From: a virus
Lineage: Duplodnaviria > Heunggongvirae > Uroviricota > Caudoviricetes
Direction: 5' to 3' (one strand)
Virus record (IMG/VR): IMGVR_UViG_3300032046_000009
DNA: 30,526 nucleotides
Shown here: positions 3,088 through 28,295 of the stretch, one piece after another
How positions within the stretch are numbered: the first letter of the stretch is position 1
Layout of the letters: every line of letters starts with the position of its first letter
Made by a program: the position numbers and the translations under genes
Notes under the pieces: model-generated
What the model saw: only the letters and a program-made list of their open reading frames with translations
Told to the model about the DNA's origin: nothing
Databases searched by the model: none

Positions 3088-4156
3088 CTAATAGTTCTAG
3101 GAAGAAGTATAGCGAAGAGTAGGTTAATTCATACCAGAAACTTGTCTTCCACTTCTTATATGTTTCAAATCGTTCCATGTTAAAATCTTTGAGTGCTGGG
3201 TCATGTTCATGTGCAAATTTTCTGTAACCGTGCTGGAAATATGTTTCCCAGTTAGGACCGAATCCTCTTTTTGTACCAACCATCTTACCATAATCCCTGT
3301 TAATTGCTGGCAATATGCCGAACTGTTCTATTTCTTTTCGAATCCGCAATTTTGTTATTGGTCCCTCAACTTTGTGGCATATTGGAAGACTACGCATCCA
3401 TGCTACTATGTCTGGGTGTTTCAAATATGGAATTTTCAAATCAACTCTACCGTGACAATGATAGACATTACCCCAAATGTAATCTCTTTGTAAGTTAAGT
3501 GTTTTGGTTTCTTCTGCTTCGAATTTTACAACATCATGTTGAACTGCCCAGAGATTTGTTTCTCCACCTGTTATTGCATCAAGACCTAGACCTATGAACG
3601 CTTTGTTTGTGCCGTCCTCTTCGAGAACCTTTGCAATGAAAAGCACTTGTGGACACCATGAAGGTGCTCGCATCAGTTGACAAGATTCCTTTATCAGTTT
3701 TGGAACTTCTTCATATGGCATAAATCTCTGAATCAATTTTACCCCTGTGGCATCGCAGACGGCTTTAGCGTATTCTGTTTCGTCTTTGTCTTCACCCCAA
3801 GTCATATTGTAGCCTCTAACGTGGTCTGGTCCTAAAATGTCAGCGGTGAATTTCAAGAGTAGTGCTGAATCTATTCCGCCTGAGAGGAATATTCCTACTC
3901 TATCAACTTCATGGTTTGGATTCCACTCATTAAGACTTCTTAAAACGGCTAAACGAATCATATCCATGTATTTTCCAGCATAGTCGCTGGTAGAATTATA
4001 TGGTATTGGTTTGTTGATTGTGTGAGCATATGTATTGTATTCCGTGATTGCTGGTGGAATAATTCCCATTGGTGGATTTAGAAGTCGCATAATATTTTTC
4101 AGATAGTAGTTTAGTTTTGCTATGTCTATATCTTTTCTTGTTAAGGTTTTTTTCAT
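3059..4156 (-). CDS. Asparagine synthase C-terminal-like (PP-loop) ATP-dependent amide ligase, no glutaminase domain
   Basis: PP-loop LSGGIDS, GLGLDAITGG (equivalent to GEGADELFGG) and DLKIPYL (equivalent to ExRxPFL). Only about 90 aa precede the PP-loop and there is no N-terminal Cys of an Ntn glutaminase. Confidence 0.8.
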   Translation of the reverse strand: MKKTLTRKDIDIAKLNYYLKNIMRLLNPPMGIIPPAITEYNTYAHTINKPIPYNSTSDYAGKYMDMIRLAVLRSLNEWNPNHEVDRVGIFLSGGIDSALLLKFTADILGPDHVRGYNMTWGEDKDETEYAKAVCDATGVKLIQRFMPYEEVPKLIKESCQLMRAPSWCPQVLFIAKVLEEDGTNKAFIGLGLDAITGGETNLWAVQHDVVKFEAEETKTLNLQRDYIWGNVYHCHGRVDLKIPYLKHPDIVAWMRSLPICHKVEGPITKLRIRKEIEQFGILPAINRDYGKMVGTKRGFGPNWETYFQHGYRKFAHEHDPALKDFNMERFETYKKWKTSFWYELTYSSLYFFLELLDEGAFTVEE

Positions 4157-4186
4157 TTTTTATCACCTTATACCTATAATATTCAT

Positions 4187-6127
4187 CTACGGATGAGGTC
4201 CTTGACATGATTCTTTTTTGTGTACCTCACCTTGTTTCTTCCCATCATCTGGAAGTTTAATAGGACATGGTGTTTCACTTTGTTTCTTCTCATCTTTTAG
4301 AAGTTTAATACGATTTAGTTCTTCACTTTGTTTCTTCTCATCTTTTAGAAGATTAGCGTGACATTCAAGTTCTTCAAAAAGATTTCTTCGGTAGATTTTT
4401 CCATCAAGTGAAATATGTTGAAGATAAATGTCGCTGGCACAATAGACCTTTAATCCCATTTCCCAGACTTTTTCAATCAAAGGCATAATGATTTCAACGT
4501 TGTTTATGCCAGTTCTTCCACCTTTTGTGTAAATTTCTGGCTTCATCATCCAAACGTGACCTGTCATTCCAACTTCAAAAACCACTTGTCCGTGCATTTG
4601 TTTGTCAAGTATCCAGTTATCATCAACGTAAGCGACAAATGGTTTACTATCAATTCTTTTCAGAGGACCAGCAATACCATAACCATCAATTGGAGAATCA
4701 GGTCTTGAACACATATGAAGTGGGAATCGTCTGTGATGAACAGCACCAACCCAACCCGCGTCAGGATAGTCTCTGAAAACTTCGAGATACCGCCTGATTG
4801 TTTGCATTGGAACAACCACGTCTGCGAAAAGAAACATAATATACTTGTGTTCTGGTTTCAGTTGGTCAAAGAAATAATGATAAACTTTACATAATCGTTT
4901 CCCTCTTTCGATTTTATCTGTCATAGTTTGTACTTTATTTTTTCCAGCCCTATTATTAATATAGTCGGATACAGTAGATTTTCCGAATTTCTTCAATCCG
5001 TAATCTTGCCTGACAAGTGTAAACGAATGATAGTTGTATTTATTTTTGATTTTCTTCTCGTATTTCTGAAGCATTCCCCATGTATTGTCAACGCTGTCAT
5101 TTTCGACCCAGACTAAATCAATCATTTCTTTTGGATAGTCAATATCGAGTAAACTTTGGATATACAAGTCTATCGATTGGTCTTCATTGTTAAAGGGGGT
5201 ACAGACTAAAATTGGAACATATGTCAAACACTTTATTCCGCTCAAAGCACCACCTACTATTTGTTTTTTTTCTTCTATCGGTTCGAATATGAGAATCGGT
5301 CCTTTCTTTCCGACAAACAAATTCTTGTGGAATCTTGCATCATGAGGAATATAAACTCTCAAGTCAGTAAATTGAGGAATACAATCTTCTGCCAAATCTA
5401 CCGCAAAAGCAAAATCATCCGAGTTGAGGTCTGGCATAATGTAGGATTTGCAACCGTGCTTTTCAAAGATGTCTCTTCGTATAGCGCATAAAGAGTGTCC
5501 TTGAAAGAAACATTGGAATATCCTCTGGTTTTTCTCTCTAAAAGAGGACGTTAAGAATGCATAGTTTTCAGGCATAGCACCTAGATAGATACATTTACTT
5601 CTTACGCCAAATTTATCCAAATACGGAAATGGTTCAATAATGACATTGATTGTTGGATGTTCTATTTGTTTTTCGCAATAACTACACATTAACCTTCCTG
5701 TCTTGTAGGTATTGCACATATTTGAACAACCTGAAATTGCTGGAAAATCATATGTACAAATGTCATCAAGAAGAAGATTAAGTGCGTCTTCTGAAACATA
5801 CACATCATCGGATATGAGAATTATGTGTGTGTACTCTGGGTGAAGTGCGACCCATTCTATGGCAATTTTGTGAGCCTCTACATCATTGTAGTATTTTATC
5901 CAAAGTTTGTCAACTTGTTTTAGGTTGTCGAAGCATTTCTGAACTTCTGGAAGGTCACGGGGAGAACGAATAATCATAATTGGTTTTATCTCAGAGAGTT
6001 CCAGTTTTCTAGGGCGCAAAAACTTTGAAATATCAGTCTCATTCTGGATGAAGTCCAATTTATGAAGTAAACGCTCCCATTCTCTATCGAATTGAGGGGT
6101 TTCAGATTTTTGTTGGGTTTCTTCCAT
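4187..6127 (-). CDS. Tandem GT-A (family 2-like) glycosyltransferase
   Basis: N-terminal domain with YTHIILISDD (DxD-like). Second domain with TPFNNE...LLDIDYPKEMIDLVWVENDSVDNT and FLFADVV, reminiscent of GT2/Anp1-Mnn9-like enzymes. Confidence 0.8.
   Translation of the reverse strand: MEETQQKSETPQFDREWERLLHKLDFIQNETDISKFLRPRKLELSEIKPIMIIRSPRDLPEVQKCFDNLKQVDKLWIKYYNDVEAHKIAIEWVALHPEYTHIILISDDVYVSEDALNLLLDDICTYDFPAISGCSNMCNTYKTGRLMCSYCEKQIEHPTINVIIEPFPYLDKFGVRSKCIYLGAMPENYAFLTSSFREKNQRIFQCFFQGHSLCAIRRDIFEKHGCKSYIMPDLNSDDFAFAVDLAEDCIPQFTDLRVYIPHDARFHKNLFVGKKGPILIFEPIEEKKQIVGGALSGIKCLTYVPILVCTPFNNEDQSIDLYIQSLLDIDYPKEMIDLVWVENDSVDNTWGMLQKYEKKIKNKYNYHSFTLVRQDYGLKKFGKSTVSDYINNRAGKNKVQTMTDKIERGKRLCKVYHYFFDQLKPEHKYIMFLFADVVVPMQTIRRYLEVFRDYPDAGWVGAVHHRRFPLHMCSRPDSPIDGYGIAGPLKRIDSKPFVAYVDDNWILDKQMHGQVVFEVGMTGHVWMMKPEIYTKGGRTGINNVEIIMPLIEKVWEMGLKVYCASDIYLQHISLDGKIYRRNLFEELECHANLLKDEKKQSEELNRIKLLKDEKKQSETPCPIKLPDDGKKQGEVHKKESCQGPHP
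4226..4351. repeat. Three 48-bp tandem units at the 3' end of the tandem glycosyltransferase
   Basis: Exact 30-mer TTCACTTTGTTTCTTCTCATCTTTTAGAAG at 4274-4303 and 4322-4351, with a degenerate copy at about 4226-4255. Encodes LLKDEKKQSE x2 plus LPDDGKKQGE. Confidence 0.9.
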
Positions 6128-8471: not shown

Positions 8472-8479
8472 TATTTAAA
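8472..8479 (-). promoter_or_regulatory. Archaeal TATA box of the glycan operon
   Basis: TTTAAATA on the minus strand, 33 nt upstream of the ATG at 8438. Confidence 0.65.
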
Positions 8480-8481
8480 TG

Positions 8482-10770
8482 TTACGGTTCAAAGCACTCC
8501 CGTATATAGTCTTGTATGGTTTTACACCCAACTACTTTCAATGTATAGTCAGATGGATTAATGTTTTTCTCATAGTTTCTTTGAGGAATACAAACCTTCT
8601 TAAATCCCATTCTCTGAGCCGCTAAAATTTTCTCGTGTGCGCCGCCAATAGAAGTAACTTCTATTCCAGATTCGCCCGCTTTCAAATCACCATTTGCTAT
8701 GTTTATTTCGCCCGTGACCGCTACATCCTGTCGTATCTTCTTTTGAAGCAATACCGAAGCTAGAGCCAGAGTCATCGTTATTCCAGCACTAGGACCTTCA
8801 ACGCCATGTTCCTGAGCGAAGTCAACATGTGTATAGCATTCTTGTTCCACATCAATACCATATAGTTGAAGGATAACATGCCGAACTTTTGCTATTGAAT
8901 GTTGAACATAAGATGAATCTTTTGTTGCAACGCCCGTAACGGTAAAGTATCCAAGAGATTTTAGACCAGTTTTTTGCAAACATGATGCTCGAATTGTCAA
9001 AACCGAACCTACCATATCTGTTCCTTCTACATTAATTGTGCTTACAGCTAGACCGTGGATTTGTCCTACTTTTGGTTCTTCTGTTGGGTCAATTAATGTA
9101 TTATATATAATATGGTTTTCAATCTGTTTCTCCATAACTTGTAAAGCAATTGACTTACAATGTTCATTTAAGGCATCATTAACGTGTTTTCTTTCAACTA
9201 TCTTTAGCCCCTCATTCTGAGCCAGAACACTTGCAGTTTTTATCGTGCCAATCATAGGTCTAAACTTACACGTTATAGTATTGTTCTTTCCACTTTTCCT
9301 AATTGCTTCCTCAATCACCGCTATGCAAGCGTCCCTACTGAGAGGCAATAGATGAAAACGTTTGACTTCTTGAGAAATAAATTGAACATATTTTCGGCGA
9401 TTCTCTGGTATGTTTGGCATATCGTTCGACATATAGACCATTTTACCGTAGCCATGAATGCGGTCTAACAGAGCATAATGAATGTGTGGCAAACTATCCA
9501 AATTTCCAGCGGCTATCAAGAAATTCATACATGGAATTGGTTCTGTTGCTACAGCCATTGCCGCTGTGTCACCGCCATTTAGTGAGCCTCTCATAGCAAC
9601 TGGCAGTTGTCCATCTTCCAGAACAGTCAACAAAGTTATAGCTTCATCGCCAATTAAATTCTTAATTTCGTCTATGTAGAGAATTCCTAAGTGTGCTCTG
9701 TGAACATCGCCAGCGGTTACTCTCTGGTGTTCGGGCGTTCCCAAATCTCCTGTCTGATAGGGGTCCCAAGCTATTGAACCGAAGAGTTGTGCGCTTCTGT
9801 GTCCTGTAGCATCAATGAAGGGGGCAATTCCACTTGAATTATCAATCAGCAATTTTGGTGCTTGAGTAGCTTCTGCCCCACCTACTCCTTTCTTATTTCC
9901 GCCTATCATTCCGCCCATAAATCTTGAAAAGATATAAAGCATTCCACCCATAGACAATGCCATTATTCCAGAAATCACAAGTTGGATATTCGACATTATG
10001 CAACCTTGAACCATATATTGTAAGAAATTGCCGTGGAAAAATTCTTGAACTGTCTCTCCCCACATAGTCCAAATTACGTTGTAATACCAATCGGTAAGTC
10101 CAGAAATTCCTATGTAGCCTAGAATGAATATCCCTATGCTCATCATAAGCAATATTATAGCTTTAAATCCCCACTTTACAAATCTGCCCTTCTTAGCTTC
10201 CATTTTAGCGGCTTTCTTGATTATCTTTGTTCCTTCTGGTGATGGGTGAATTGAAATTCTAGGTTGACAAGGCAAAGTCTTGTTATACCATGAGCATGTA
10301 TCGTATAGTTTTATCCCTTTCTTTTGATAAAGGTCTGTCATATAACTCTGCATAGCGCGACCCAAAAGACTCTTACCTGTTCCAGCATCTCCTAACATGA
10401 GCAGAAAAGGTCCAGAGGGCAACATTTCTTTCGGTAAAGGCTTAGGGTTGAAGACGAGTTCCTTCTTTCCATAATTGAACAGATGAATCTTGTGACCACG
10501 AAACTTTATAGCTAATTCCCTTTTTGGCTTCTCAACTATCTCGAATGGTTTCCACCATTTCTTTTCGTTCAACCAACCTAGTTTGTTTACCCATTCATCA
10601 ATACAAAGTTTGCATTCAGTTATGGCATGTTCTTGTCCGATAATCCAATCGATGAGATTAGGTGAAACTGGATAGTTCTCAGTTGATTGGAAGTTCTCCC
10701 AATCCCAACTTTCGTCTGATTTACCAAAAAATTCCTTTAACCTATCCATTATTTTCTTAGGCATGAACAC
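8482..10770 (-). CDS. lonB: Membrane-anchored ATP-dependent Lon protease (LonB architecture)
   Basis: N-terminal LIDWIIGQEHA, Walker A GDAGTGKS, two hydrophobic segments inserted in the AAA+ domain, VTAGDVHRAHLGILYIDEI (Walker B), catalytic Ser in EGPSAG and Lys in GGAHEKILAA. Confidence 0.93.
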   Translation of the reverse strand: MFMPKKIMDRLKEFFGKSDESWDWENFQSTENYPVSPNLIDWIIGQEHAITECKLCIDEWVNKLGWLNEKKWWKPFEIVEKPKRELAIKFRGHKIHLFNYGKKELVFNPKPLPKEMLPSGPFLLMLGDAGTGKSLLGRAMQSYMTDLYQKKGIKLYDTCSWYNKTLPCQPRISIHPSPEGTKIIKKAAKMEAKKGRFVKWGFKAIILLMMSIGIFILGYIGISGLTDWYYNVIWTMWGETVQEFFHGNFLQYMVQGCIMSNIQLVISGIMALSMGGMLYIFSRFMGGMIGGNKKGVGGAEATQAPKLLIDNSSGIAPFIDATGHRSAQLFGSIAWDPYQTGDLGTPEHQRVTAGDVHRAHLGILYIDEIKNLIGDEAITLLTVLEDGQLPVAMRGSLNGGDTAAMAVATEPIPCMNFLIAAGNLDSLPHIHYALLDRIHGYGKMVYMSNDMPNIPENRRKYVQFISQEVKRFHLLPLSRDACIAVIEEAIRKSGKNNTITCKFRPMIGTIKTASVLAQNEGLKIVERKHVNDALNEHCKSIALQVMEKQIENHIIYNTLIDPTEEPKVGQIHGLAVSTINVEGTDMVGSVLTIRASCLQKTGLKSLGYFTVTGVATKDSSYVQHSIAKVRHVILQLYGIDVEQECYTHVDFAQEHGVEGPSAGITMTLALASVLLQKKIRQDVAVTGEINIANGDLKAGESGIEVTSIGGAHEKILAAQRMGFKKVCIPQRNYEKNINPSDYTLKVVGCKTIQDYIRECFEP

Positions 10771-10797
10771 ACCTTATAAGAAATAGAGGCAACGAAC

Positions 10798-10805
10798 TAT
10801 TTAAA
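10798..10805 (-). promoter_or_regulatory. Archaeal TATA box upstream of lon
   Basis: TTTAAATA on the minus strand, about 27 nt upstream of the annotated start. Confidence 0.65.
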
Positions 10806-10807
10806 GG

Positions 10808-12805
10808 TTACGGTATTCCATACACTTCTTGGTTGTTAAGAGCCATACCCTTCAACATAATGTAGTTTTCTCCTTGTAGTTTTACGAATGCTTTCTCAAA
10901 TTTGTCATTATCTTCACATTTCATCAAGTTTCTGAGGTCATTCTTTGTCATATCGTGGCTTTTGAATGCTTCCATCATAATCTTTTGAATGTCCATTGAG
11001 GATGTAGATTGACCAGTTTCGAGTTGGGTTACATCATTGCCAACGGTGTCTTTAAGGAATACATCGAACAATCGTTTAACACATTCTACATCAGATGCAT
11101 CAGCTTCAAGTTTAAGAAGAGACCTTGCCCGCGCAAGTGTCAACCGCTTCAAAGCCTCAAATTGTCTATATGAAAAGGGGAAGGTTTTCTGGTCAGTTGT
11201 GTAAGTTTTCCTTACAGCAACAAAATAGTTCTTCAAAGATTCAGCCGCTTCTTTAGAAAGTTTGGGTTTAAGTTTCTTAGAGTATGCAATATATTTTCTC
11301 AAAAGTTTTCTGTCTATTGGAGATTTTCTATCGGCATTTTCTATGATGTGGTCCACAACTTCTCTATCCATCTGTTCGTTTGGAATATCAAGCACTTTAA
11401 AAATTAAGTCGAACCTACTGAATAGGCTTGGCGGAAACTTTGGAAGATTTTCAAACACCGATTTATATTGGTCATATCTTCCTAAACTTGGATTTGCCGC
11501 CGCAATCAATGATGTCCTAGCTTTCAACTGAACATGATAACCAGCTTTGTCAATTGAGACTGTTTGTTGTTCCATCGCTTCGTGAATATTTACTCTATCC
11601 TCTTCACGCATCTTATCGATTTCATCTATTGCGGCTACACCTTCGTCTGCCAGAACCAAAACACCAGCGGAGATTTCCCATTCTCCACTATCATTATCTT
11701 TGTGAAGTGCCGCAGTTAATCCAGCCGCAGTTGTCCCTCTACCCATTGCATACATTCCTCTGGGCGACAACTCTACAGCCGCACGAAGCAATTGGCTTTT
11801 GGCAGTAGCGGGGTCGCCAACCATAAGAATGTGAATATTCCCACGTATAGTTATATCTTCTCGAATTTCCTCTGGGGAACCAAAAATAGCCAATAATACA
11901 GCTTCCTTCTCATTCTCATGACCATAGAGCGAAGGAGCAAGAGAATTAATCATCTTCATATAAACTTCTGGGTCTTTAGCTATTTCCTTTAATTGAAGTT
12001 CCTCTTCTAATGTGAACACCATTGCGTCTGGGTCTTTACGTCTTTTATTGACAGAGAGAACTTCTAAATAGATTACATTGAACTTTGTTTTGACAAATTT
12101 CTGTGAAGCCGACATAGCATTTACTACACAAATAGCTTCTATGTCATCTCCACAATTTACAAAATTTAGAAGATGATTTTTGAATGTGATACATCGTATA
12201 GGTCTTGGAATTTTTGAACTAGATATATCATCATATGCCTCTTGAATAGTAAACTCTTGACTGTCTTCTAATGTGCTTAATTGTGGCACAGGTTCCCAAG
12301 TTGTTCTGTCATCACAACCTTCACACTTAGGAAATGGTTTAGTAAGTGTCCACGGATTTCCTTGCACAATTGATTGAGATTCTGCCCCGCACATAACACA
12401 TTTAAAAACAGCTTCTATATACATTGGAAGAATCTTAGCAGTTTTATTTACAAGACCATGAATTTTAACAATGTGACCAATATCATCCGCTCCAATTTCA
12501 TGAATCAAACTTAGTGGAAAAGTTCCAGTTATGCTTATATGAGTTTTGTCAATCGTTTTCAAACCGATATAAACAACCTCACTATCTACAGCATCTTCAA
12601 GAGCCGCCATTCCATAACTCAATGCTGTTCTAATCAACTCATCAGCCGTTGCTTTTTGAAATACAGCCAACTCATCAATGTTCACAATGATTGTATCGGT
12701 TGTTCCAGCTACATAATCATCGATATATTTCTTTCCTTTTGGGTCTTTAAGAAATAGGGTTATTGCACCAGCCAGATTTTTCCTTTCCAATGTATTAGAT
12801 GGCAT
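10808..12805 (-). CDS. mcm: MCM replicative helicase
   Basis: C4 Zn finger (CVMC...CEGC), Walker A GDPATAKS, Walker B IDEIDKM, EAMEQQTVSIDKAG, AAANP and Arg finger SRFDL. No intein seen. Confidence 0.97.
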   Translation of the reverse strand: MPSNTLERKNLAGAITLFLKDPKGKKYIDDYVAGTTDTIIVNIDELAVFQKATADELIRTALSYGMAALEDAVDSEVVYIGLKTIDKTHISITGTFPLSLIHEIGADDIGHIVKIHGLVNKTAKILPMYIEAVFKCVMCGAESQSIVQGNPWTLTKPFPKCEGCDDRTTWEPVPQLSTLEDSQEFTIQEAYDDISSSKIPRPIRCITFKNHLLNFVNCGDDIEAICVVNAMSASQKFVKTKFNVIYLEVLSVNKRRKDPDAMVFTLEEELQLKEIAKDPEVYMKMINSLAPSLYGHENEKEAVLLAIFGSPEEIREDITIRGNIHILMVGDPATAKSQLLRAAVELSPRGMYAMGRGTTAAGLTAALHKDNDSGEWEISAGVLVLADEGVAAIDEIDKMREEDRVNIHEAMEQQTVSIDKAGYHVQLKARTSLIAAANPSLGRYDQYKSVFENLPKFPPSLFSRFDLIFKVLDIPNEQMDREVVDHIIENADRKSPIDRKLLRKYIAYSKKLKPKLSKEAAESLKNYFVAVRKTYTTDQKTFPFSYRQFEALKRLTLARARSLLKLEADASDVECVKRLFDVFLKDTVGNDVTQLETGQSTSSMDIQKIMMEAFKSHDMTKNDLRNLMKCEDNDKFEKAFVKLQGENYIMLKGMALNNQEVYGIP

Positions 12806-12878: not shown

Positions 12879-15800
12879 TTATTCATCCAATTCGTCTAAC
12901 TTATCCAAGAGGTCCATAAGTTCCCGTTTGGTCATCTTCTTCTTTCTGGTCGATAGAGGTTCTATGAAAAATGAGAATGTATTATTTGAAACTATATCTA
13001 GTCCAGCAGAGGTAAAAGTCATTCCTCTTTCTGATAAGATGTTTAATGGGTCAATTCCAAATCCAACTATTTGTTCTTTAGAAAGTTGTAATTCTACTAG
13101 AGTGATTGAGTAAGATTGTTCTTTTGCTACTGCTAATTCGGTTAAAGAAGTAGATTGTGAACATTCTTTTGCTATTGCTAGTTCGTTTAGAGAAGTAGAT
13201 TGTGAATATGATTTTGCCACATCCAGTTCAGCAGTTCTATTAGAGTGAGATGACTTTCCTATTACCTTTAATTCTGAAACAGGTTTCTTTGATTCGACTT
13301 TTTGAGCTATTTGCAATTCTTTTGTTGGAATTTTCTGTTGATGGCGTATGGAAACTACTTTAAGAGCAATTACTTTGAAGTTGAAGTTACGTTCGATATA
13401 CTTTACTATTCCTTCTGAAATTCTTCTATCTATTTCCTCTGGATGACCGCCGCCGATTTTTACCTTTTCAAGTTTTACCAGCAAAACATCTATACCAGTA
13501 TTTTGGGTTATGCCAAGTTTCTCAATCAAAGAATCCACTAAATATTCTTTATTTATTTTGAGTGACGAAAGGAAAGCGTCAATGAGATAACCATTTGCAA
13601 TTTCATTTCTCTTGAACAGAACATCCAAATAATATGGAATTTCTATACCAAGTTTCTTCATTATCAAATCTGCAAGATATGTTTTAATTACACTTAATTT
13701 CTTGAGCACAACATCAATATCATAAGGAATCATTATTCCCAATTTTCGAAGAAGAGTGTCTATTGAATCGGTTTTGGTTAACCCTAATTTTTTAAAGAGA
13801 ACATCTATGTCATAAGAATATTTTGGTCTAAGTCCAAGTATCCCATATAGCCATAAAATCATTTTACCGCTATCAACTGTTCTTCCTTGTTCCATATAAT
13901 TTCCTGATGCACCAGCTAATTTATCAGCGGTGAAGAGTTGAATACAACTTGCACCAGATTCCGTAATAGAATCCCGTGCCGTTTGACCCGTCAGCCATTG
14001 CTGTGTAACAGGCACTTCAGGACCGTAAAGACATATAGCTTCAAATAGTTCTTCTTTTCCTTTTGGAAGCGTAATAGTATTAGTTTCAGTTGCAGGAGTC
14101 CACGGACCACTACCATAAGCCATATGATAATCTGGTGTTCCAGATATTACCGTATTAGCATATGAACAACTTGCGCCCTTATATTGGATTGAGTTTCCAG
14201 TCCCACCTAATGTAACTGTAATTGTTTGTGTACCAACTAACGGAGAATATTTGTACCAGAATTCCAGATAAACATTGCCATATTGGTCAGTAAATCGTGT
14301 AAGATATGTTGCATTTTGTCCACCTACTTTTACCGAAACTATATTTTGACCCGTTCTGGTTACAGCAATTACAACTAAGTTTGCATCCCCCCCAATAATA
14401 TGGGTCCAACTCCAAGAGCTTTGACCAGTAGCGCATTTTCCACTTCCATGATGGTCAAATCTAATGGTAGAAATATTCAATCGTTTTAACAAAACGTCTA
14501 TATCATAAGAACCTTCTACTCGTGATTTAGAAGTCCATGAACCAAACGCTGGTTCTGGACGAACACATTTACGATGCCAAAAAGCATCAAAGTACATTTT
14601 TTTACGTGTGGTTGCTAGAACAGCCCCAATCATAGTTCTCATAGCGTTAGTTAATTTAACACCAGTATTTGCCAGTTGAACCCCGTCTATATAAAAGTAT
14701 GTCAAATTAGTATGTTCTATTTCAAGCAGATGCCATCCTACTATACGGTTAACTGTTGAAGTTAACCATCCCGTACCATTATTATAAACATATTTAGTCG
14801 CGCTTTGAAATTCGCCCACACCTACATAACGTGCAGTAGTATTATTATCCCAAACTAGCCATCCTTCTTCTGCCAACGCTTCCATACGGTCATAGAACAT
14901 AATTGCCGTTTTCCCCATAGTTTGGTTTTGTGCAAAGCGGTTGTCAAGATACCCGTTATAGCTTGATACTTCTTGCCCACATTCTATTCCTTTTATTTTT
15001 TCGTAAACATAACTTGTATCTAATACCACTACACCATTTACAGTCCATAGTTTATCTCCACTCCCAGTTTTTAATGTTTCAAAATCATCGAACCATGAGA
15101 ATGTATTGAAGCCATTGCTAGTGGTCGTAACATTTGGATTTCCATACCAGATATAAATTGTACGATTAACTGTACTCAAATCTTCTTTGACTTCTACCCA
15201 AAATAACGCATAATTTCCATTCACTTTTTCTGCTAACCAATAATCTAAGTCAGTTTTTCCGTCCTCGCTCTTAAATCTAACATCTCCAAAATCGGTTCTA
15301 CATTCTCCATTTAAATAGACTTTGGCTCTCGTTTCATTTCCAAAGGATTCTGTGCCGTCTGTTCCATTTCCATAGTAAACTTTTATACACACGGGATAGT
15401 TTGTTCCAGCGTTACTTGCATAATTTATAGTTAAACCTTTTTTCCACATCCAATTTTGATTCACGATAATACTTAATCTTTTGAGTAGAATATCCATATC
15501 ATCGGTTCTTGTCAGTCCTAACTTTTGAAGAAGTGCATCTATAGAATCTGTAGTAGTTTGTCTCAAAGCTGTTTGAACATCTATCAGATTAGTCTTAGTA
15601 ACTCCTAATTTCTTAAACAATACATCAATTGAATCTACAACCGTCAAACCCTGTTTTTGGAGTAAAACATCTATCTGGTCAGTTATAGTTGCGGAATATT
15701 TTGAAAGTATAACATCTATCTGTTTTGCATTTGTGATTCCAAGTTTCTTAAAAAGTGTATCTACCGAATCGATTTTAGTTATGTCTAACTTCTTAAAGAG

Positions 15801-18800
15801 CACGTCTATATCATCTGTGCTTGTAAATCGTAATGCAGTAAGAACGTCTATATCGTAAGGAATTATTACCCCTAATATTTTGAGCAATGTATCTATTGAG
15901 TCTGTTGTAGTTAATCCGAGTTTCTTGAACAACACATCAATCGAGTTGGTCTTAGTTATTCCTGATGCCTCAAATAGAACGTCTATCGAATCTGTAACAA
16001 CAACGCCAATCTTTTTGAACAGAGTATCTATTGAGTCTGTAATAACAACCCCCGTCTTTTCAAATAGAGTGTCTATAGAATCTATAGAAATTAATCTTGA
16101 AGCTATTTCAATATCTATAGGATAAATTGAAGTTATCTCCAACTTCTTGAAAAGAATATCTATAGAATCAGTTTTGATAATTCCGCTCTTTTGTAGCAAT
16201 ACGTCTATTGAATCTGTTTTTGTTACTTTTAACTTCTTTAACATCACGTCTATAGAATCAGTTATCGGAATAGCCAATTTTTTAAACAAAATATCTATAC
16301 TATCTATTTTTGTAATTCCAGTTATCTTGAAAAGAATATCTATAGAGTCTGTACTTATTAATCTCGAAGCTATCTCAACGTCTATTGGATATGCTTTAGT
16401 AATCCCTATCTTCTTGAATAAAACGTCTATACTGTCTATTTTTACTATACCCCCTTTCTTGAAAAGAATATCTGTGGAATAAGTCTTTATAAGAATGAGT
16501 CTCTTGAATATAACATCTATAGAATTTGTCTTAGTTACTCCTAACTTTTTAAAGAGAGCATCTATTGAATCTGTTTTGGTTAACCCTTGTTTTGCTAGTA
16601 AAGTATCAATATCGTAAGTTATATACTTTGTAGTAATACCTGATTTTAGAATAACATCTATAGAATAAGTTTCTGTTAGACCTAACTTACCAAACAACAC
16701 GTCTATAGAATCTGTCTTGGTTATCCCTAATTTCTTGAAAACTGTATCTATTGAAGTGGTTACAGGTATTGCTACCATCTTGAATATAACATCAATTGAA
16801 TGGGAATTTTCTGTTTCTTCTTCTTCCCATGCTCCTTGTGCTGGCTCGGTTGCAATCATTTTTCGTGAAAAGAAGTCATCATGAATTTCTGGACCAAGTT
16901 TTGCACCATTATCGCATTTTCCTTCAAGATAGACATAGACATCTGTATCTGCAAGAGTGTATGCTTCGTCCGCTCTGAGATAAACTAGCCACGGGTAATC
17001 TTTATCTTGTTCATAGAAATAAATATGTCCACCGACAATCTTTATGATGACAACATCTGTTGTTGCCAAAAATGACGCACTATAAAGTGTTCCAGAGTCT
17101 TTACTTTGAATATAGATATTTCCGTCACCATAAATAAGAACACGATACCAATCAAGTTGAGTCCAAAGGTCAACATTGGTGTATTGTGTTGGAATTATCC
17201 AAAGTCCCATTTGACCCAAATTCTGAGCATTGGTAGTTCTAAGTCTAATAACACAACCAGAAGCATCAACCACGTCTGTTGAGACATACCATGCTTCGTC
17301 AGCACTTTTAAGAGCGGAGATTTCTAGTTGGTTATTTACTTCATCTACTGAGCCAAGTCCAGCCCCATCAGAATGATATTCTCCTTCGGTCCATTTTGCA
17401 TCTTTCGAGTTATCATTAAAGTTATCTCCCAAATTCCAAAGCGATGATACCGCTGGGTCACTCAAAGATGTGGCGGAACTATTCCCATAGTAAACATACA
17501 TATTGAAAGCGTCTGATTCCAAACTGTCTGGAATTTCAACCCAGAAGATTGCATAATCACTATTGGTTTTTTGTTCAAGCCAGTAATCCAAAAGAGTCTG
17601 ACCATCGCCAGTTGTGAAACGAATGTCATCAAAATCAGTCTGACAATTTGTATTACATGAGAAACAATCGTAGTCGATATAGACTCTCAAATAGTAAGTT
17701 GCTGTTGACCATGCTCCGAGAAGATAAACTGTTCGGTCACGGAATCCATTTGCATCAACGACTGTTTCGCTTAAAGCATTATGGTTGTAATAGCCGTCTA
17801 TTTGTGGGTCTAGGTCATACGTTTCAAGAGCTACAGAGTTTCCAGCAAAATCACCAGTTATAGCTCTTAATGTAAGTTTTCCAGCAGATGGTCGTGCTAT
17901 ATGAATATACATATGTGTTGTATCATGAAAGACGCATGGAACAAGAGCTTCGGTATTGGCAAATGGATTTACTATTGGGTCGCCATCAGAATCATCAAGT
18001 TGTCCATCTTTGGTCCACGGACAATCTTCTATATCAGTAGTTATAGCTCTACCAATTGAGTAAACCCCATTTTCATCGTTGCATTCATACATCATATAGT
18101 ATGTTGAACCATCTTTCATAATGCAAGGCGATGTTGTTGACATTTCATCATATGAGTGGTCTGCACCGACATCTACTGGGTCCCCAATATAGGTATAACT
18201 TCCAACCAAATTAAAATCCGAAGATATTGTGGTTTTGTAAAGTTTTATTGGACCAGACTTGCTTCCAGAAGTTGTATATCCTTGAAGAAACAGATAAATA
18301 TCCGACCCTTCTATATAAACTGTTGGGTCACGAACTCCAACCCCAGAACCAGTTAAATCTATTACACATACTGGTGTGGTCCAAGTTGTAAACGGTGGTC
18401 CAGACTTCATATAGTATATTTTATCCGTATCTGAAAACCCATCATCGCTTATACCTACCCAAACATGAAGTTCTTGACCATCCCAATAAGTTGCAGTTTG
18501 ACCAGATATGAATTCTGTCCCATCGGGTGGACTTATTGCCACACCTTCCGTAGCAAATCTAATATTTTCCCAATTACCATCGTATTTAGCAACCATTCTT
18601 TTTTGATAGTCAGTTCCCGCGCCCGTTGCTGGGTTTATTTGGTTAAATCGTCTATATGTCCAGTTTGCAAGCCAACGAGCAACTTTTCTTGAAGCTATTT
18701 GAACGTCTATTGAATCGGTTACTGTTTTTCGTACTTCTTCATTTCCCCAAGTTGAGTTGGCTGGCTCAGAAGCAACAAACGGTCTAATTTTAAATGCCGA

Positions 18801-19742
18801 AAATGTTTCTGTACCGAAACCATAAGTTGTATATGTGGCTATTATCAAGTGAACCCTGTCGGGTGTTTCAGAATTCGCTTCATTAACTCTCTGGGTTCCA
18901 TTTTCTATAATTGAAATACTTCCGCCAATTTTCTTCCAGATTTGGGATTTTGTAATAGGTACAGCACCAGATTGTTCACCAGAATAATAATCGGAAGCCC
19001 CACCTACACCACAATCAAACCACCAATGTTTGTCTCCACCCCAACTATCGCCAATATTGGCATATGCTACTCCTTTGTCAGTAACATCGTTATACGCCGT
19101 ATGATGAAGACTATGCCCAGCACCAAAAATTTCGCCGTTAACGGCAGAGTCGTGAACCAATGTAAAGGCTGTTGCTGGTGCTCCGTAAGCATGTTCAATA
19201 ATCCATGTTGTAGGCAAACTAAGTCCTGTCTTCGAGTGAAAACCAACACCATCCCACCAATGAGAAGTCGCCATGTTAGTAACTTCGAGAACATGAGTTG
19301 TAGCATTAATAGAATATACTGGTGTTCCATCCACACTTATCCATCTATTCGTATTAAGAGTCACATTGTCAAATGGGTCGCCGAATATGAAGGTGGCATC
19401 GAAGTCTGATGTTGTTGTTTGAGCAGTTTTACCATAATAAATGTAAATAGTTGCATTAGATTCTAAAGTATCATTCACTTTAAACCAGAAATAAGCAAAA
19501 TTGGAATTTGTTTTTGATTCCAACCAACAACTTAGAACGGTATTTCCATCATTGTCTGTAAATCGTACATCTCCAAAATCTGTGGCGCATTTGGTTGCCA
19601 GATTTATTTCATCATTATTAGCCGCCGCGCTATCGTAGAGAACTTTCACTCTTTTACAATAACCAAGTCCAGCACCAGCACTAGCCGTAATCAAATGGGA
19701 CTTTCTGTATGTCCAACCAACGAGCCAATTTTCACCCGACAT
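12879..19742 (-). CDS. 2287-aa modular fibre/adhesin-like protein (3 DUF2341-like modules, glycosidase-like beta-propeller, repeat shaft)
   Basis: Three copies of W-x-(Y/W)-(R/K)...C-x-TDF-x-D-(V/I)-RF...L-x-x-WL-x-(E)...FW...IY(V/I)(Y/W)YGN. Asp/Pro blade motifs (VRDPTV, TSPCIM, LVPCVF). About 39 copies of a TKTDSIDVLFKKLGI-type repeat. No obvious signal peptide. Confidence 0.8.
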   Translation of the reverse strand: MSGENWLVGWTYRKSHLITASAGAGLGYCKRVKVLYDSAAANNDEINLATKCATDFGDVRFTDNDGNTVLSCWLESKTNSNFAYFWFKVNDTLESNATIYIYYGKTAQTTTSDFDATFIFGDPFDNVTLNTNRWISVDGTPVYSINATTHVLEVTNMATSHWWDGVGFHSKTGLSLPTTWIIEHAYGAPATAFTLVHDSAVNGEIFGAGHSLHHTAYNDVTDKGVAYANIGDSWGGDKHWWFDCGVGGASDYYSGEQSGAVPITKSQIWKKIGGSISIIENGTQRVNEANSETPDRVHLIIATYTTYGFGTETFSAFKIRPFVASEPANSTWGNEEVRKTVTDSIDVQIASRKVARWLANWTYRRFNQINPATGAGTDYQKRMVAKYDGNWENIRFATEGVAISPPDGTEFISGQTATYWDGQELHVWVGISDDGFSDTDKIYYMKSGPPFTTWTTPVCVIDLTGSGVGVRDPTVYIEGSDIYLFLQGYTTSGSKSGPIKLYKTTISSDFNLVGSYTYIGDPVDVGADHSYDEMSTTSPCIMKDGSTYYMMYECNDENGVYSIGRAITTDIEDCPWTKDGQLDDSDGDPIVNPFANTEALVPCVFHDTTHMYIHIARPSAGKLTLRAITGDFAGNSVALETYDLDPQIDGYYNHNALSETVVDANGFRDRTVYLLGAWSTATYYLRVYIDYDCFSCNTNCQTDFDDIRFTTGDGQTLLDYWLEQKTNSDYAIFWVEIPDSLESDAFNMYVYYGNSSATSLSDPAVSSLWNLGDNFNDNSKDAKWTEGEYHSDGAGLGSVDEVNNQLEISALKSADEAWYVSTDVVDASGCVIRLRTTNAQNLGQMGLWIIPTQYTNVDLWTQLDWYRVLIYGDGNIYIQSKDSGTLYSASFLATTDVVIIKIVGGHIYFYEQDKDYPWLVYLRADEAYTLADTDVYVYLEGKCDNGAKLGPEIHDDFFSRKMIATEPAQGAWEEEETENSHSIDVIFKMVAIPVTTSIDTVFKKLGITKTDSIDVLFGKLGLTETYSIDVILKSGITTKYITYDIDTLLAKQGLTKTDSIDALFKKLGVTKTNSIDVIFKRLILIKTYSTDILFKKGGIVKIDSIDVLFKKIGITKAYPIDVEIASRLISTDSIDILFKITGITKIDSIDILFKKLAIPITDSIDVMLKKLKVTKTDSIDVLLQKSGIIKTDSIDILFKKLEITSIYPIDIEIASRLISIDSIDTLFEKTGVVITDSIDTLFKKIGVVVTDSIDVLFEASGITKTNSIDVLFKKLGLTTTDSIDTLLKILGVIIPYDIDVLTALRFTSTDDIDVLFKKLDITKIDSVDTLFKKLGITNAKQIDVILSKYSATITDQIDVLLQKQGLTVVDSIDVLFKKLGVTKTNLIDVQTALRQTTTDSIDALLQKLGLTRTDDMDILLKRLSIIVNQNWMWKKGLTINYASNAGTNYPVCIKVYYGNGTDGTESFGNETRAKVYLNGECRTDFGDVRFKSEDGKTDLDYWLAEKVNGNYALFWVEVKEDLSTVNRTIYIWYGNPNVTTTSNGFNTFSWFDDFETLKTGSGDKLWTVNGVVVLDTSYVYEKIKGIECGQEVSSYNGYLDNRFAQNQTMGKTAIMFYDRMEALAEEGWLVWDNNTTARYVGVGEFQSATKYVYNNGTGWLTSTVNRIVGWHLLEIEHTNLTYFYIDGVQLANTGVKLTNAMRTMIGAVLATTRKKMYFDAFWHRKCVRPEPAFGSWTSKSRVEGSYDIDVLLKRLNISTIRFDHHGSGKCATGQSSWSWTHIIGGDANLVVIAVTRTGQNIVSVKVGGQNATYLTRFTDQYGNVYLEFWYKYSPLVGTQTITVTLGGTGNSIQYKGASCSYANTVISGTPDYHMAYGSGPWTPATETNTITLPKGKEELFEAICLYGPEVPVTQQWLTGQTARDSITESGASCIQLFTADKLAGASGNYMEQGRTVDSGKMILWLYGILGLRPKYSYDIDVLFKKLGLTKTDSIDTLLRKLGIMIPYDIDVVLKKLSVIKTYLADLIMKKLGIEIPYYLDVLFKRNEIANGYLIDAFLSSLKINKEYLVDSLIEKLGITQNTGIDVLLVKLEKVKIGGGHPEEIDRRISEGIVKYIERNFNFKVIALKVVSIRHQQKIPTKELQIAQKVESKKPVSELKVIGKSSHSNRTAELDVAKSYSQSTSLNELAIAKECSQSTSLTELAVAKEQSYSITLVELQLSKEQIVGFGIDPLNILSERGMTFTSAGLDIVSNNTFSFFIEPLSTRKKKMTKRELMDLLDKLDELDE
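13060..13290 (-). repeat. Second 15-aa repeat type (ELAIAKECSQSTSL-like, about 5 units) near the fibre C-terminus
   Basis: SELKVIGKSSHSNRT / AELDVAKSYSQSTSL / NELAIAKECSQSTSL / TELAVAKEQSYSITL / VELQLSKEQ. Confidence 0.75.
13464..13829 (-). repeat. Eight degenerate 15-aa shaft repeats
   Basis: RPKYSYDIDVLFKKLGL through TQNTGIDVLLVKLEK, 122 aa. Confidence 0.85.
15468..16811 (-). repeat. 30-unit coding repeat array, 45-nt units with a 267-nt higher-order period
   Basis: Consensus TKTDSIDVLFKKLGI. Units 10, 16, 22 and 28 are 14-aa variants whose last codons fall at about 16359, 16092, 15825 and 15558, exactly 267 nt apart. Confidence 0.95.
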
Positions 19743-19785: not shown

Positions 19786-19793
19786 TATTTAAA
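19786..19793 (-). promoter_or_regulatory. Archaeal BRE/TATA upstream of the fibre gene
   Basis: GAAAACTTTAAATA on the minus strand, followed by a GAGG SD-like motif before the ATG at 19742. Confidence 0.65.
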
Positions 19794-21366: not shown

Positions 21367-21798
21367 TTAGTTTTCTTTGTTTTCTATTCGTTTTATCTGA
21401 TTACAGTTAGCGCAAAGAAGTTGAAACTCTTCTGGATGACTCAAAACATATTTAAAGAACTTAACTGCATTCATTATTCCTCTTTGTTGATGCCCACCAC
21501 CGTTGATATGGTCGATTTGAAAGCCTCTGGGGTCTGAAAACCCACAACGAACACACTTTCCGCCGAGCAATTGAAAGACTTCGACTTTATACTTTTCAAC
21601 AAGTTTCTGATAGTAAATATGTCTATGACTCTTGAATTTGTCTGTTTTAGAATATGCACGTTCATATATTCGTTTTTCTTCTCGTTGTTCCTTTGTCATA
21701 TTCCGTTTGTACTCTTTTTGTTGAGATTTGATTTCATCCCTGTGTCTGGCGTAATATCTTTGATGCCTATTTTCTGGGTGTTCGAACTTGAATACCAT
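21367..21798 (-). CDS. Free-standing HNH (His-Me finger) endonuclease
   Basis: CVRCG...QIDHINGGG...FQLLCANCNQIKR, with a basic Y/K/R-rich N-terminus. Confidence 0.85.
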   Translation of the reverse strand: MVFKFEHPENRHQRYYARHRDEIKSQQKEYKRNMTKEQREEKRIYERAYSKTDKFKSHRHIYYQKLVEKYKVEVFQLLGGKCVRCGFSDPRGFQIDHINGGGHQQRGIMNAVKFFKYVLSHPEEFQLLCANCNQIKRIENKEN

Positions 21799-24899: not shown

Positions 24900-25457
24900 T
24901 TATTGACGTTTTTTACGCCCTTTTTCATCCTTTTTGATTGACTTTGCCAATTCCTTCAATGGGGGAATCTTAGTCCAATCATTAAGTTTGCTTTCTGTAG
25001 CGGCTACTATTGTTGGTTTTCCGTCAATCATTTCCATTATGTATTCTCCATAGGGGTCTGGAAGAGTGATTTTACGTGGCAAATCATAAAGTTCTGCTGG
25101 ACGTTTGCCTTCTTGAATCCATAGAATAGTTTGATAAGCACATAGAAGATTCCATATCGCCGCTATAAGATGGTTCTCATCATTTCGTCCATCGATAACT
25201 TGCGCGGCATGACGTATAGCTGAGTCCAAAAAAGACTTTACTGGCAAACCTTTTTCCCAATTTCGGTCCCCGTACTTTTCACAACCTTTCTGATAATGAA
25301 TGGCAATTGCTCGAATAACAGCCCACGGCAAAAGGTCAAACCGACCTTTCCCAATAGCCATATCTCTAACTGCACCTGTTCCAAATTCTCTACGTGAACC
25401 AGAATCCTTAATTTCATAATCAGATTTTCCTTCAGGTTCTTTTGGTGGTTTTCTCAT
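24900..25457 (-). CDS. DUF5664 / dATP-dGTP diphosphohydrolase-like protein
   Basis: REFGTGAVRD...GKGRFDLLP...KYGDRNWEKG...SAIRH...DENHLIAAIWN, the characteristic family signature. Confidence 0.88.
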   Translation of the reverse strand: MRKPPKEPEGKSDYEIKDSGSRREFGTGAVRDMAIGKGRFDLLPWAVIRAIAIHYQKGCEKYGDRNWEKGLPVKSFLDSAIRHAAQVIDGRNDENHLIAAIWNLLCAYQTILWIQEGKRPAELYDLPRKITLPDPYGEYIMEMIDGKPTIVAATESKLNDWTKIPPLKELAKSIKKDEKGRKKRQ

Positions 25458-25767: not shown

Positions 25768-26496
25768 TTATTCGTCTATTTCACCTTTGTTTTTATTTCT
25801 CCAATGAATATATCTTCTTTTCCAATAGAAAAACTTAGCAACCTTTCTTCCAAGAACTTCTTGTAACCACGGTTCAGGAATTTGCATTCCACTTTCTTTG
25901 GTATAAAATTTTGCAAGATTTAAACCATAACCAATCATTCCTATTTTTCTATCTGGATTTGTTTCTTGATGAACGTGAGGGCAAATACCATCATTACGAT
26001 TCTTTCCCATATTACAATTGAAACAAAGAACCTGAAACCCTTCTTTTGGATACCCGTTTTCTTTAAGCCAAAGATATAAATTCTTTTTAATTTGTTTTCG
26101 ATGACGATTCCCAAATCCATTAATATGGTCAATAGTAAGAAACTTTATCTCAGTTTCGCCGCAACACGCACATTTAGGCGGATTACCACCATAATGTTTT
26201 AATCCTTCTATAATCAAATTGTAACGATATTTCTTACTTGATTTCTTATGAACTTCTGGATGAATTTTTCCATATTCTTTTTGATTACTTAACATTTTCT
26301 TTTTGTTTTTTGCATAATAATCACGAAGATATGTAATAGGTCTAAGATATTTCTTGTTATATACATTATGGCATTTCTTACAAAAAGACTTCAAACCATC
26401 CTTACGCCTAACATCCTTTCCAAACTCATTTATAGACTTTGTTTCACCACATCGACAACATTTCTTTACACCATTCATATCATTTCTCACCGTCAT
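25768..26496 (-). CDS. HNH endonuclease with N-terminal Zn finger and unrelated C-terminal tail
   Basis: CCRCGETK...EF...CKKC, then CACCGE...TIDHINGFG...FQVLCFNCNMGK. Confidence 0.85.
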   Translation of the reverse strand: MTVRNDMNGVKKCCRCGETKSINEFGKDVRRKDGLKSFCKKCHNVYNKKYLRPITYLRDYYAKNKKKMLSNQKEYGKIHPEVHKKSSKKYRYNLIIEGLKHYGGNPPKCACCGETEIKFLTIDHINGFGNRHRKQIKKNLYLWLKENGYPKEGFQVLCFNCNMGKNRNDGICPHVHQETNPDRKIGMIGYGLNLAKFYTKESGMQIPEPWLQEVLGRKVAKFFYWKRRYIHWRNKNKGEIDE

Positions 26497-27812: not shown

Positions 27813-28295
27813 CTAATCATCTACATATGTATCTTCTATGTATTCGAGATATTCTTTCCATGAAGAGAATATTTTAGTAGAACATCCCACAAGCCATGCT
27901 GGAAGTTTTATGGGCTTCAAACTTCTATCAGTTACAACGAGCAATGGCTTCTTGAGATAAAACTGCAAAGTTGCTTCACCATAAGTTCCACAGATTTCAT
28001 ATCCATTATCTTCTGGAACATAAAGAGTAACAAATGTACATTTTTCAACCATACTCAAGTCTGGGGGTATTATCGTATTCTTTGTAAAATCTCTTACTTT
28101 TTCTACTTGACCATTTTCCATCCACATTTTTAATTTAGCCCTATTCTTACCTAATCTGTCTCCACCACCAGAACCCATAGGATTCAAAACTTCTATTCTA
28201 AATCTTGACAATGAAGCAGTTATGTTTTCTCTCCATTCCATAGCACCCTTTTCAATGACTACACCTATAGGTCCAGCTAGATATGTACTTATCAT
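27813..28295 (-). CDS. Nucleoside 2-deoxyribosyltransferase / nucleotide N-glycosidase-like protein
   Basis: N-terminal YLAGPI...WR...L...VLNP, D-x-x-x-V and GT-x-x-E motifs of the NDT/Rcl-like flavodoxin fold. Confidence 0.8.
   Translation of the reverse strand: MISTYLAGPIGVVIEKGAMEWRENITASLSRFRIEVLNPMGSGGGDRLGKNRAKLKMWMENGQVEKVRDFTKNTIIPPDLSMVEKCTFVTLYVPEDNGYEICGTYGEATLQFYLKKPLLVVTDRSLKPIKLPAWLVGCSTKIFSSWKEYLEYIEDTYVDD

Follow-up and report, generated by a model that had tools for sequence, protein, structure and literature searches.

A LonB protease of a divergent subfamily, conserved in large uncultivated tailed viruses

Lon proteases of archaea and bacteria and the locus under study

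LonB is the main membrane ATP-dependent protease of archaea and is often essential. The active-site motif of B-type Lon proteases is typically (D/E)GDSA(S/T). In LonA, a conserved proline stands before the catalytic serine, in the position where LonB has an aspartate, and a hybrid bacterial subfamily, LonBA, which has no membrane insert, has also been described (PMC9569914). The present analysis concerns a lon gene in a stretch of DNA of 30,526 nucleotides, the IMG/VR virus record IMGVR_UViG_3300032046_000009, referred to below at its full length as the window. The gene belongs to a divergent LonB subfamily and is conserved in viruses, and the reading proposed here, with a probability of about 0.85, is that it encodes an intact LonB protease of the type found in the host lineage, which would act in the infected cell.

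Full-text literature searches returned no description of a virus-encoded LonB and no report of a full LonB as a conserved gene of archaeal viruses. Lon protease is not mentioned in a paper on the viruses of Bathyarchaeia (PMC10848311), and an apparent match to "LonB" in another article (PMC12998224) proved to be false, the word standing in a reference.

A complete LonB with intact motor and active site

The open reading frame (ORF) at positions 8482-10770 on the minus strand is genuine, and its translation gives 762 residues from the GTG at 10770. The most likely start of lonB is nevertheless the ATG at 10764 rather than this GTG, since a Shine-Dalgarno-like AGGTG, read from the sequence at 10770-10774, lies 5 nt before the ATG and an identical database protein (P0002) is 760 residues long. 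The predicted coding sequence then covers 8482-10764, with the stop codon at 8482-8484, and its product is 760 residues long and 100% identical to P0002. Residue numbers refer to this protein, and all features of the gene are on the minus strand.

Pfam matches of the protein are to Lon_C (9.5e-21) and to the LonB lid family LonB_AAA-LID (PF20436; 2.3e-9), and no match to the LonA N-terminal domain (LON_substr_bdg) was found in Pfam, only 122 residues being located N-terminal of Walker A. The top NCBIfam family is TIGR00764, archaeal LonB, with an E-value of 2.6e-105 and 353.3 bits, and the LonA model TIGR00763 reaches just 73.8 bits over the C-terminal part of the protein only. The equivalog cut-off of TIGR00764 (516.6 bits) is reached neither by the window protein nor by the cellular LonB of a Bathyarchaeia contig (L080; 401.5 bits), and both are assigned from their sequences to a divergent LonB subfamily. 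The closest solved structure by sequence is that of Thermococcus onnurineus LonB (3K1J; 1.3e-76). An AlphaFold2 model, built from an alignment of 73 sequences, has a mean predicted local distance difference test score (pLDDT) of 85.9 and a predicted template modelling (pTM) score of 0.74, and superposes on 3K1J with a template modelling (TM) score of 0.86, normalised to the target. The protein has no LonA N-domain, a membrane insert separates its Walker A from its Walker B, and it carries a LonB lid and the Ser-Lys dyad of family S16, all of which are features of LonB; the two LonB features that it does not show are an aspartate before the catalytic serine and a TIGR00764 score above the cut-off. 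The features of LonA were not found; these are an extensive N-terminal domain and an AAA+ module of A type that lacks a membrane insert. The original prediction, made from the DNA letters without database searches, had described a Lon with LonB architecture and no LonA N-domain, and this description is upheld by Pfam, TIGR00764, the match to 3K1J and the structural model.

With regard to the motor, Walker A (GDAGTGKS, residues 127-134) was located by alignment and motif at 10369-10392, and Walker B (ILYIDE, residues 363-368, including Asp367 and Glu368) by motif and conservation at 9667-9684. Between them, at 9901-10185, hydropathy and the model place a membrane-anchoring insert with an outer loop rich in tryptophan and tyrosine; Kyte-Doolittle peaks and model helices agree on two transmembrane helices, at residues 196-229 and 262-289, which span 9904-10185 and fit the range of 9920-10175 given in the original prediction. 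The pore-loop region (9556-9759), assigned by conservation and by alignment to 3K1J, includes Tyr338 and Met405, which align with segments of 3K1J that we take to be its pore loops (Phe216 and Met275). The LonB AAA+ lid, supported by Pfam and conservation, occupies 9160-9345 and includes Arg504, which is probably sensor 2.

The S16 protease domain was assigned to 8485-9090 by Pfam, NCBIfam and the alignment to 3K1J. Motif and conservation place the catalytic serine motif GVEGPSAG at 8782-8805, with Ser661 at 8788-8790, and the catalytic lysine motif GGAHEKILAAQRMG at 8605-8646, with Lys714 at 8629-8631; the lysine motif is nearer to that of Escherichia coli LonA than to that of T. onnurineus LonB. 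The two catalytic residues are 53 positions apart, where the spacing is 43 for 3K1J and 47 for its cellular counterparts in Bathyarchaeia, and the loop insertion NIANGDLKAGESGI at 8662-8703 adds 10 residues relative to 3K1J and 6 relative to cellular LonB of Bathyarchaeia.

Upstream of Walker A, alignments and the model delimit a basic insert of 66 residues (57-122; 10405-10602) between the N-terminal helix and Walker A, with 14 lysines and arginines and 8 aspartates and glutamates. It is missing in 3K1J, the window protein being about 60 residues longer there, and in the model it starts as a long helix, after which comes a small beta-meander of four strands. About 40 of its residues are common to cellular LonB of Bathyarchaeia, whereas residues 86-108 (about 22) are found only in the window protein and a few close viral relatives. 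The two-helix insertion in the AAA+ module, the additional basic insert and the EGPSAG context of the serine had all been read from the sequence in the original prediction, and each of them was recovered, the transmembrane helices by comparing hydropathy with the model.

Across 73 LonB sequences, eight residues do not vary (Lys133, Asp367, Glu368, Asn423, Arg437, Arg504, Ser661 and Lys714). The same eight are found in 38 viral-clade sequences, with the sole exception of an alignment gap at Lys133 in one N-terminally short sequence. Of the two pore-loop residues, Met405 is invariant in these 38 sequences and Tyr338 is present in 32 of them. This conservation and the genomes of the viral relatives support the original prediction to the extent that the LonB is complete, retains its catalytic residues and is encoded by a virus.

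The ratio of nonsynonymous to synonymous substitutions (dN/dS) between the copies L089 and L092 is 0.089/0.488, or about 0.18, and that of cellular pairs is about 0.03, with saturated dS in the latter. The difference between the two ratios suggests that selection on the viral copies is purifying but looser than in cells. Identity between the window protein and cellular LonB varies by region, from 76% in the AAA core to 49% in the protease domain and 24% in both the N-terminal insert and the membrane domain.

The GPSAG motif and the LonB of the host lineage

A scan of one genome per species gave 244 relatives, the best 80 of which are on contigs of Bathyarchaeia metagenome-assembled genomes, at 48-52% identity, with one contig excepted. 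This exception, an 8.5 kb contig (L074; DATGZD010000092.1), is filed under the bacterium "Candidatus Sulfotelmatobacter" and encodes a LonB of Bathyarchaeia type with 49% identity, so that its filing is probably a binning error. Close relatives of the window LonB were detected in 3 out of 81 sampled genomes of the same phylum. In the three genomes examined, one of them a closed chromosome of 1.18 Mb, the sole Lon_C gene is the Bathyarchaeia LonB. A helix of the form LCxDEWxxKLxxLxxxxWW, N-terminal to Walker A, is common to these cellular proteins. For the MCM helicase encoded next to lon in the window, the closest relatives that bear a name are also from Bathyarchaeota, and the host of the virus is, as far as sequence relationships indicate, probably one of the Bathyarchaeia of sediments.

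The motif G(V/I)(D/E)GPSAG occurs in 95 of the 120 best database matches, including proteins annotated as "S16 family serine protease" on Bathyarchaeia contigs of 300-490 kb, and GPSAG is present in all cellular Bathyarchaeia LonB retrieved. Among representatives at 50% identity, 15 carry PSAG and 24 carry DSAS, and the identity to the query is as low as 31-36% for some of those with PSAG. The original prediction had taken the LonA-type motif as the mark of a diverged viral Lon, a claim that is overturned by its presence both in cellular LonB of Bathyarchaeia and in more distant LonB-like proteins. A viral chimera, in which a B-type motor would have been joined to an A-type protease domain from LonA, was likewise considered and rejected as a viral feature because the same motifs are found in all cellular Bathyarchaeia LonB. 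When the protease domain is scored alone, it obtains 81 bits with the LonBA model, 75 with archaeal LonB, 75 with LonC and 68 with LonA, and no donor stands out since these scores are nearly equal. These motifs and scores place the window protein in a divergent LonB subfamily, so far uncharacterised, whose active site is A-like; GPSAG is a trait of this lineage and not of the virus. Such a subfamily blurs the textbook division between the active sites of LonA and LonB, and the viral gene offers a handle on it.

LonB as a core gene of large tailed viruses

A survey of IMG/VR, proposed along with the original prediction, found at least 26 loci that carry LonB, at 35-56% identity. The records of five of these loci (L084, L085, L086, L101 and L087) are 79-121 kb long, have direct terminal repeats and a CheckV completeness of 100%. 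A match to the terminase large subunit was obtained in all four records searched (L084, L085, L086 and L101), and in the L087 contig the terminase adjoins the portal gene; a capsid protein of the HK97 type is encoded in the L087 genome as well, and so is a head-tail connector.

Two gene arrangements recur. In the window, L086 and L101, mcm is followed by lon. In a second group of viruses, a small ORF is followed by terminase, portal, lon and GT1. With the portal alone as query, 13 contigs were obtained, and lon lies directly after portal in 13 out of 13. In one locus of this group (L003:5455-5458, plus strand), the ATG of lon overlaps the portal stop codon as ATGA, an overlap which implies translational coupling of lon to portal in that group. 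With regard to the first arrangement, mcm and lon very probably co-occur widely, as judged from more than 20 Lon and MCM metagenome matches whose longest contigs are of the same length; on more distant viral contigs (MCM identity of 35% or less), lon was not found within 6 kb of mcm. Taken together, these genomes indicate that lonB is part of the core gene set of very large tailed viruses (80-156 kb; uncultivated) in at least two groups, and that purifying selection has kept it there.

No LonB covering at least 80% of the window protein was detected among 50,697 deposited phage and archaeal-virus records. The opinion expressed earlier that such a Lon is not a standard gene of archaeal tailed viruses holds for these deposited records, but not for the viral lineages in question, in which lon is a core gene.

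Inteins or other large inserts are found in lonB of the viral clade at no fewer than five sites: GDAG^TGKS in Walker A, IDA^TGH, FG^SIAW, DPYQ^TG in pore loop 1 and GGD^TAAM. Proteins with such elements include P0007, P0011, P0013, P0027, P0029, P0049, P0062, P0104, P0107, P0123, P0124, P0126 and P0132, and several of the insert-bearing proteins have Pfam matches to LAGLIDADG or intein-splicing families. The lonB of L101 (7199-12304, plus strand) encodes 1701 residues and holds three of these inteins or inserts at once. The viral lonB has remained intact, and in related viruses inteins have heavily colonised its counterparts.

In the genome of L087, a 730-residue ORF (L150:5293-7485, minus strand) lies directly upstream of the HK97 capsid gene and has no significant Pfam or PHROG match. 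Its product is a candidate scaffold or novel maturation protein.

Phylogeny and direction of transfer

Two trees were inferred by quick searches, with support from the Shimodaira-Hasegawa-like approximate likelihood-ratio test (SH-aLRT) only, one under LG+G4 with 66 rows and the other under LG+C20 with posterior mean site frequencies (PMSF) and 40 rows; both were rooted on LonB of the GDSAS type. In both trees, the window protein forms a clade with L003, L084, L085, L086 and metagenome proteins (support of 96 and 95, respectively). The cellular LonB of Bathyarchaeia appears as a derived clade (99 and 98), nested among the viral lineages. A viral subclade consisting of L093 and L095, joined by L094 in the 66-row tree, is placed within the cellular clade, where its sister is one of the cellular subgroups; this indicates more than one exchange of lonB between viruses and cells. 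The cellular loci with which these copies were compared in the trees are L055, L073 and L080.

In the approximately unbiased (AU) test, holding all viral and metagenome rows together was rejected (p = 0.001). When L093, L095 and P0129 were left free, viral monophyly was not rejected (p = 0.28), in an exploratory comparison for which the grouping was chosen after the tree. One old capture from the host lineage and at least one later exchange would fit these data. The viral branches of the rooted trees may have been drawn towards the root by fast viral rates and long outgroup branches. A descent of the sole LonB of cellular Bathyarchaeia from a viral lineage is considered unlikely. The way in which viruses and cells are tangled in the tree suggests that this gene, central to proteostasis, has passed repeatedly between Bathyarchaeia and their viruses.

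The original prediction had named a contrary outcome, in which the protein would branch within ordinary host LonB sequences that also carry GPSAG, in a host-like gene context. Half of this outcome was seen: GPSAG is present in host LonB, but the protein of the window belongs to a viral clade outside the cellular clade and has a viral gene context.

Gene neighbourhood and promoters

In the window, all ORFs of at least 120 residues are on one strand. The upstream neighbour of lon is the gene for the MCM helicase (10808-12805, minus strand; identified by Pfam), and the adjacency of mcm and lon is kept in L086 and L101. Downstream of lon, Pfam identifies genes for a PIG-L deacetylase, a short-chain dehydrogenase/reductase (SDR), a hexapeptide acyltransferase, a GT2 glycosyltransferase, an asparagine-synthase-like protein and a UDP-GlcNAc 2-epimerase, so that lon sits between mcm and a glycan operon, as had been noted from the sequence.

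A promoter cassette, CCGTAACCTTTAAATA, starts at the mcm stop codon (10798-10813, minus strand) and contains the TATA box TTTAAATA (10798-10805, minus strand), which starts 41 nt before the lon ATG. The next cassette, CCGTAACATTTAAATA (8472-8487, minus strand), includes the lon stop codon and precedes the PIG-L and glycan genes, which it is predicted to drive. There are 10 matches to the cassette in the window, allowing up to three mismatches, compared with 1.6 expected, mostly just 5' of gene starts on the minus strand. The earlier proposal that lon has its own promoter is supported by this TATA cassette and its excess of matches, and such a promoter is accordingly predicted. Both mcm and lon end in a proline codon and stop (CCG TAA), which indicates that the last codon and the stop belong to the cassette. 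The repeated cassette, CCGTAACnTTTAAATA, starts inside the upstream gene, and further copies are found near 19786, 20579, 21832, 24869 and 26515.

The window also encodes a primase-like protein, RadA, HNH endonucleases, a protein with a dATP/dGTP diphosphohydrolase domain and a 2287-residue DUF2341 protein. The latter (12879-19742, minus strand) contains three DUF2341 domains (2.3e-48) and is encoded directly upstream of mcm; in the portal-linked viruses, smaller DUF2341 proteins are encoded downstream of lon, a few genes away. The diphosphohydrolase match, at 24900-25457 (minus strand), is to the N-terminal domain of dATP/dGTP diphosphohydrolases (PF18909; 3.4e-18), and a weak match resembling nucleoside 2-deoxyribosyltransferase is found at 27813-28295 (minus strand). 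The virus may, from these annotations, alter the nucleotide pool or its DNA bases. Paralogous genes for HNH or endonuclease VII-like proteins are present in the window at 21367-21798 and 25768-26496 (minus strand) and in L086 at 3984-4514, 9400-9882 and 12134-12628, where two of them flank lon, one on each side. An ORF of 861 residues at 22255-24840 was considered as a portal gene and was not established as such, with a Pfam value of 0.007, no match in PHROGs and no BLAST match to the portal of the other virus group.

Proposed function and alternative explanations

By homology with 3K1J, the protein would form a hexamer held in the cytoplasmic membrane of the host by the two-helix hairpin, with the ATPase ring and the protease chamber in the cytoplasm. 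Substrates would be pulled in by the Tyr338 and Met405 pore loops at the expense of ATP and cut by the Ser661-Lys714 dyad. This predicted mechanism of hexamer assembly, threading and cleavage is well supported by the sequence and the model. In the infected cell, the virus would supply its own copy of what is the sole Lon activity of its host. In the window virus, lon would be expressed from its own promoter, and in the portal-linked group its translational coupling to portal would mean that the protease is made together with the virion proteins. As for its role, a tentative proposal, held at somewhat less than even odds, is that of a membrane quality-control and turnover protease under viral control, which would keep the cell working during the mass production of structural and glycan-pathway proteins. 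The substrate choice of the viral LonB may differ from that of the host enzyme because its most divergent parts, the N-terminal insert and the membrane domain, lie on the side of substrate entry.

A second possible role, only slightly less likely in our estimation, is that of a takeover tool with a shifted substrate range, by which host membrane or membrane-proximal proteins would be selectively destroyed. The proposed targets are receptors, with superinfection exclusion as the outcome, defence sensors, components of toxin-antitoxin systems and host glycosylation enzymes. This role is favoured by the contrast between the entry-side parts, which include the virus-specific strand pair of 22 residues in the insert, and the far better conserved motor (24% and 76% identity), by the faster evolution of the viral copies seen in their dN/dS, and by the glycosyltransferase or glycan genes that adjoin lon in each of the two virus groups. 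However, no substrate-recognition domain or adaptor was identified, and no link of lon to any defence system was found. Furthermore, variation in the insert and in the membrane domain is seen among cellular LonB as well, which speaks against a takeover role and equally against the more general proposal of a distinct viral substrate choice: as the membrane domain is poorly conserved in cells too, its divergence may reflect weak constraint and not a new specificity. Other observations weigh against the reading of a virus-controlled quality-control protease. No thermosome was found in the five complete genomes, and there is thus no sign of a wider quality-control package. Moreover, neither Pfam nor PHROGs gave a firm match to a capsid, portal or terminase gene within the window, whose viral nature rests on its complete relatives rather than on structural genes of its own.

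This lack of firm structural matches in the window, together with the fact that the closest named relatives of the protein are cellular LonB of Bathyarchaeia with the same motifs, would suit a lonB that is simply cellular and lies on host DNA or on a wrongly binned contig. Such an origin is largely refuted and considered most improbable. The window protein belongs to a well-supported clade with terminally redundant, CheckV-complete viral genomes, and the genes of the window are laid out on one strand behind a repeated promoter cassette. The MCM of viral type, the primase, the HNH endonucleases and the giant DUF2341 protein are shared with complete viral genomes, and cellular genomes have one lonB, in a different gene context. 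A viral gene may also be thought to serve virion morphogenesis, a portal-coupled LonB processing or removing capsid, scaffold or portal-associated proteins at the membrane and filling the slot behind portal in which a prohead protease is often encoded. In favour of this, lon lies straight after portal in all 13 contigs, with the ATGA overlap, and no Peptidase_S78 was found in five records, a screen that covered this one family and left aside S49, ClpP and S77; in the L087 genome, nine ORFs that lie after portal and before the capsid gene were scanned, and none of them matched a PHROG head-maturation protease. However, this protease screen is narrow, being limited to one family and one genome region, and a membrane-anchored hexameric AAA+ protease cannot fit inside a procapsid. 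The capsid protein, of 297 residues, has no extra N-terminal domain to remove, and in the group of the window lon is found beside mcm, with its own promoter and at a great distance from the head genes. A prohead protease is lacking in many tailed viruses, and no Lon is known to act in virion assembly. A function in morphogenesis is consequently regarded as very unlikely.

The preferred reading thus remains that of an intact viral LonB of host-lineage type acting in the infected cell. If viruses do keep the cell running or clear chosen host proteins by means of LonB, this would be a new kind of host control in the biology of archaeal viruses.

Comparison with known Lon proteases

The best match of the window protein in both sequence and fold is archaeal LonB (MEROPS S16, TIGR00764; T. 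onnurineus 3K1J and 4ZPX), with which it shares a short N-terminal region, an AAA+ module split by a two-helix membrane insert, the LonB lid and the S16 Ser-Lys dyad. It differs from archaeal LonB in its low TIGR00764 score (353 bits against a cut-off of 516.6), in having GPSAG in place of GDSAS and a LonA-like EKxLAAxRxG lysine motif, in the longer distance between serine and lysine (53 against 43), in the approximately 60 extra residues before Walker A and in being encoded by a virus.

The cellular LonB of Bathyarchaeia (P0091, P0098 and loci L004-L083), itself unstudied, is 48-54% identical over the full length and has the same GPSAG, the same helix before Walker A and the same membrane hairpin. 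Compared with it, the window protein has 22 additional residues in the insert (86-108) and 6 between serine and lysine, and falls in a separate viral clade. The proline before the serine and the EK(I/L)LAAxRxG motif are shared with LonA (E. coli Lon; 1RR9 and 6U5Z) and with LonBA (Bacillus subtilis LonB). Unlike LonA, the window protein has no LonA N-terminal domain and has a B-type AAA+ module with a membrane insert, and as a whole protein its best match is LonB by a wide margin. Lon-like genes of phages and prophages (PHROG 15585; Moraxella phage Mcat3 and the "lon" of Acinetobacter phage MD-2021a) also place an S16 domain on phage DNA, and the identity of the window protein to Lon of this type is 26-27% over half of its length.

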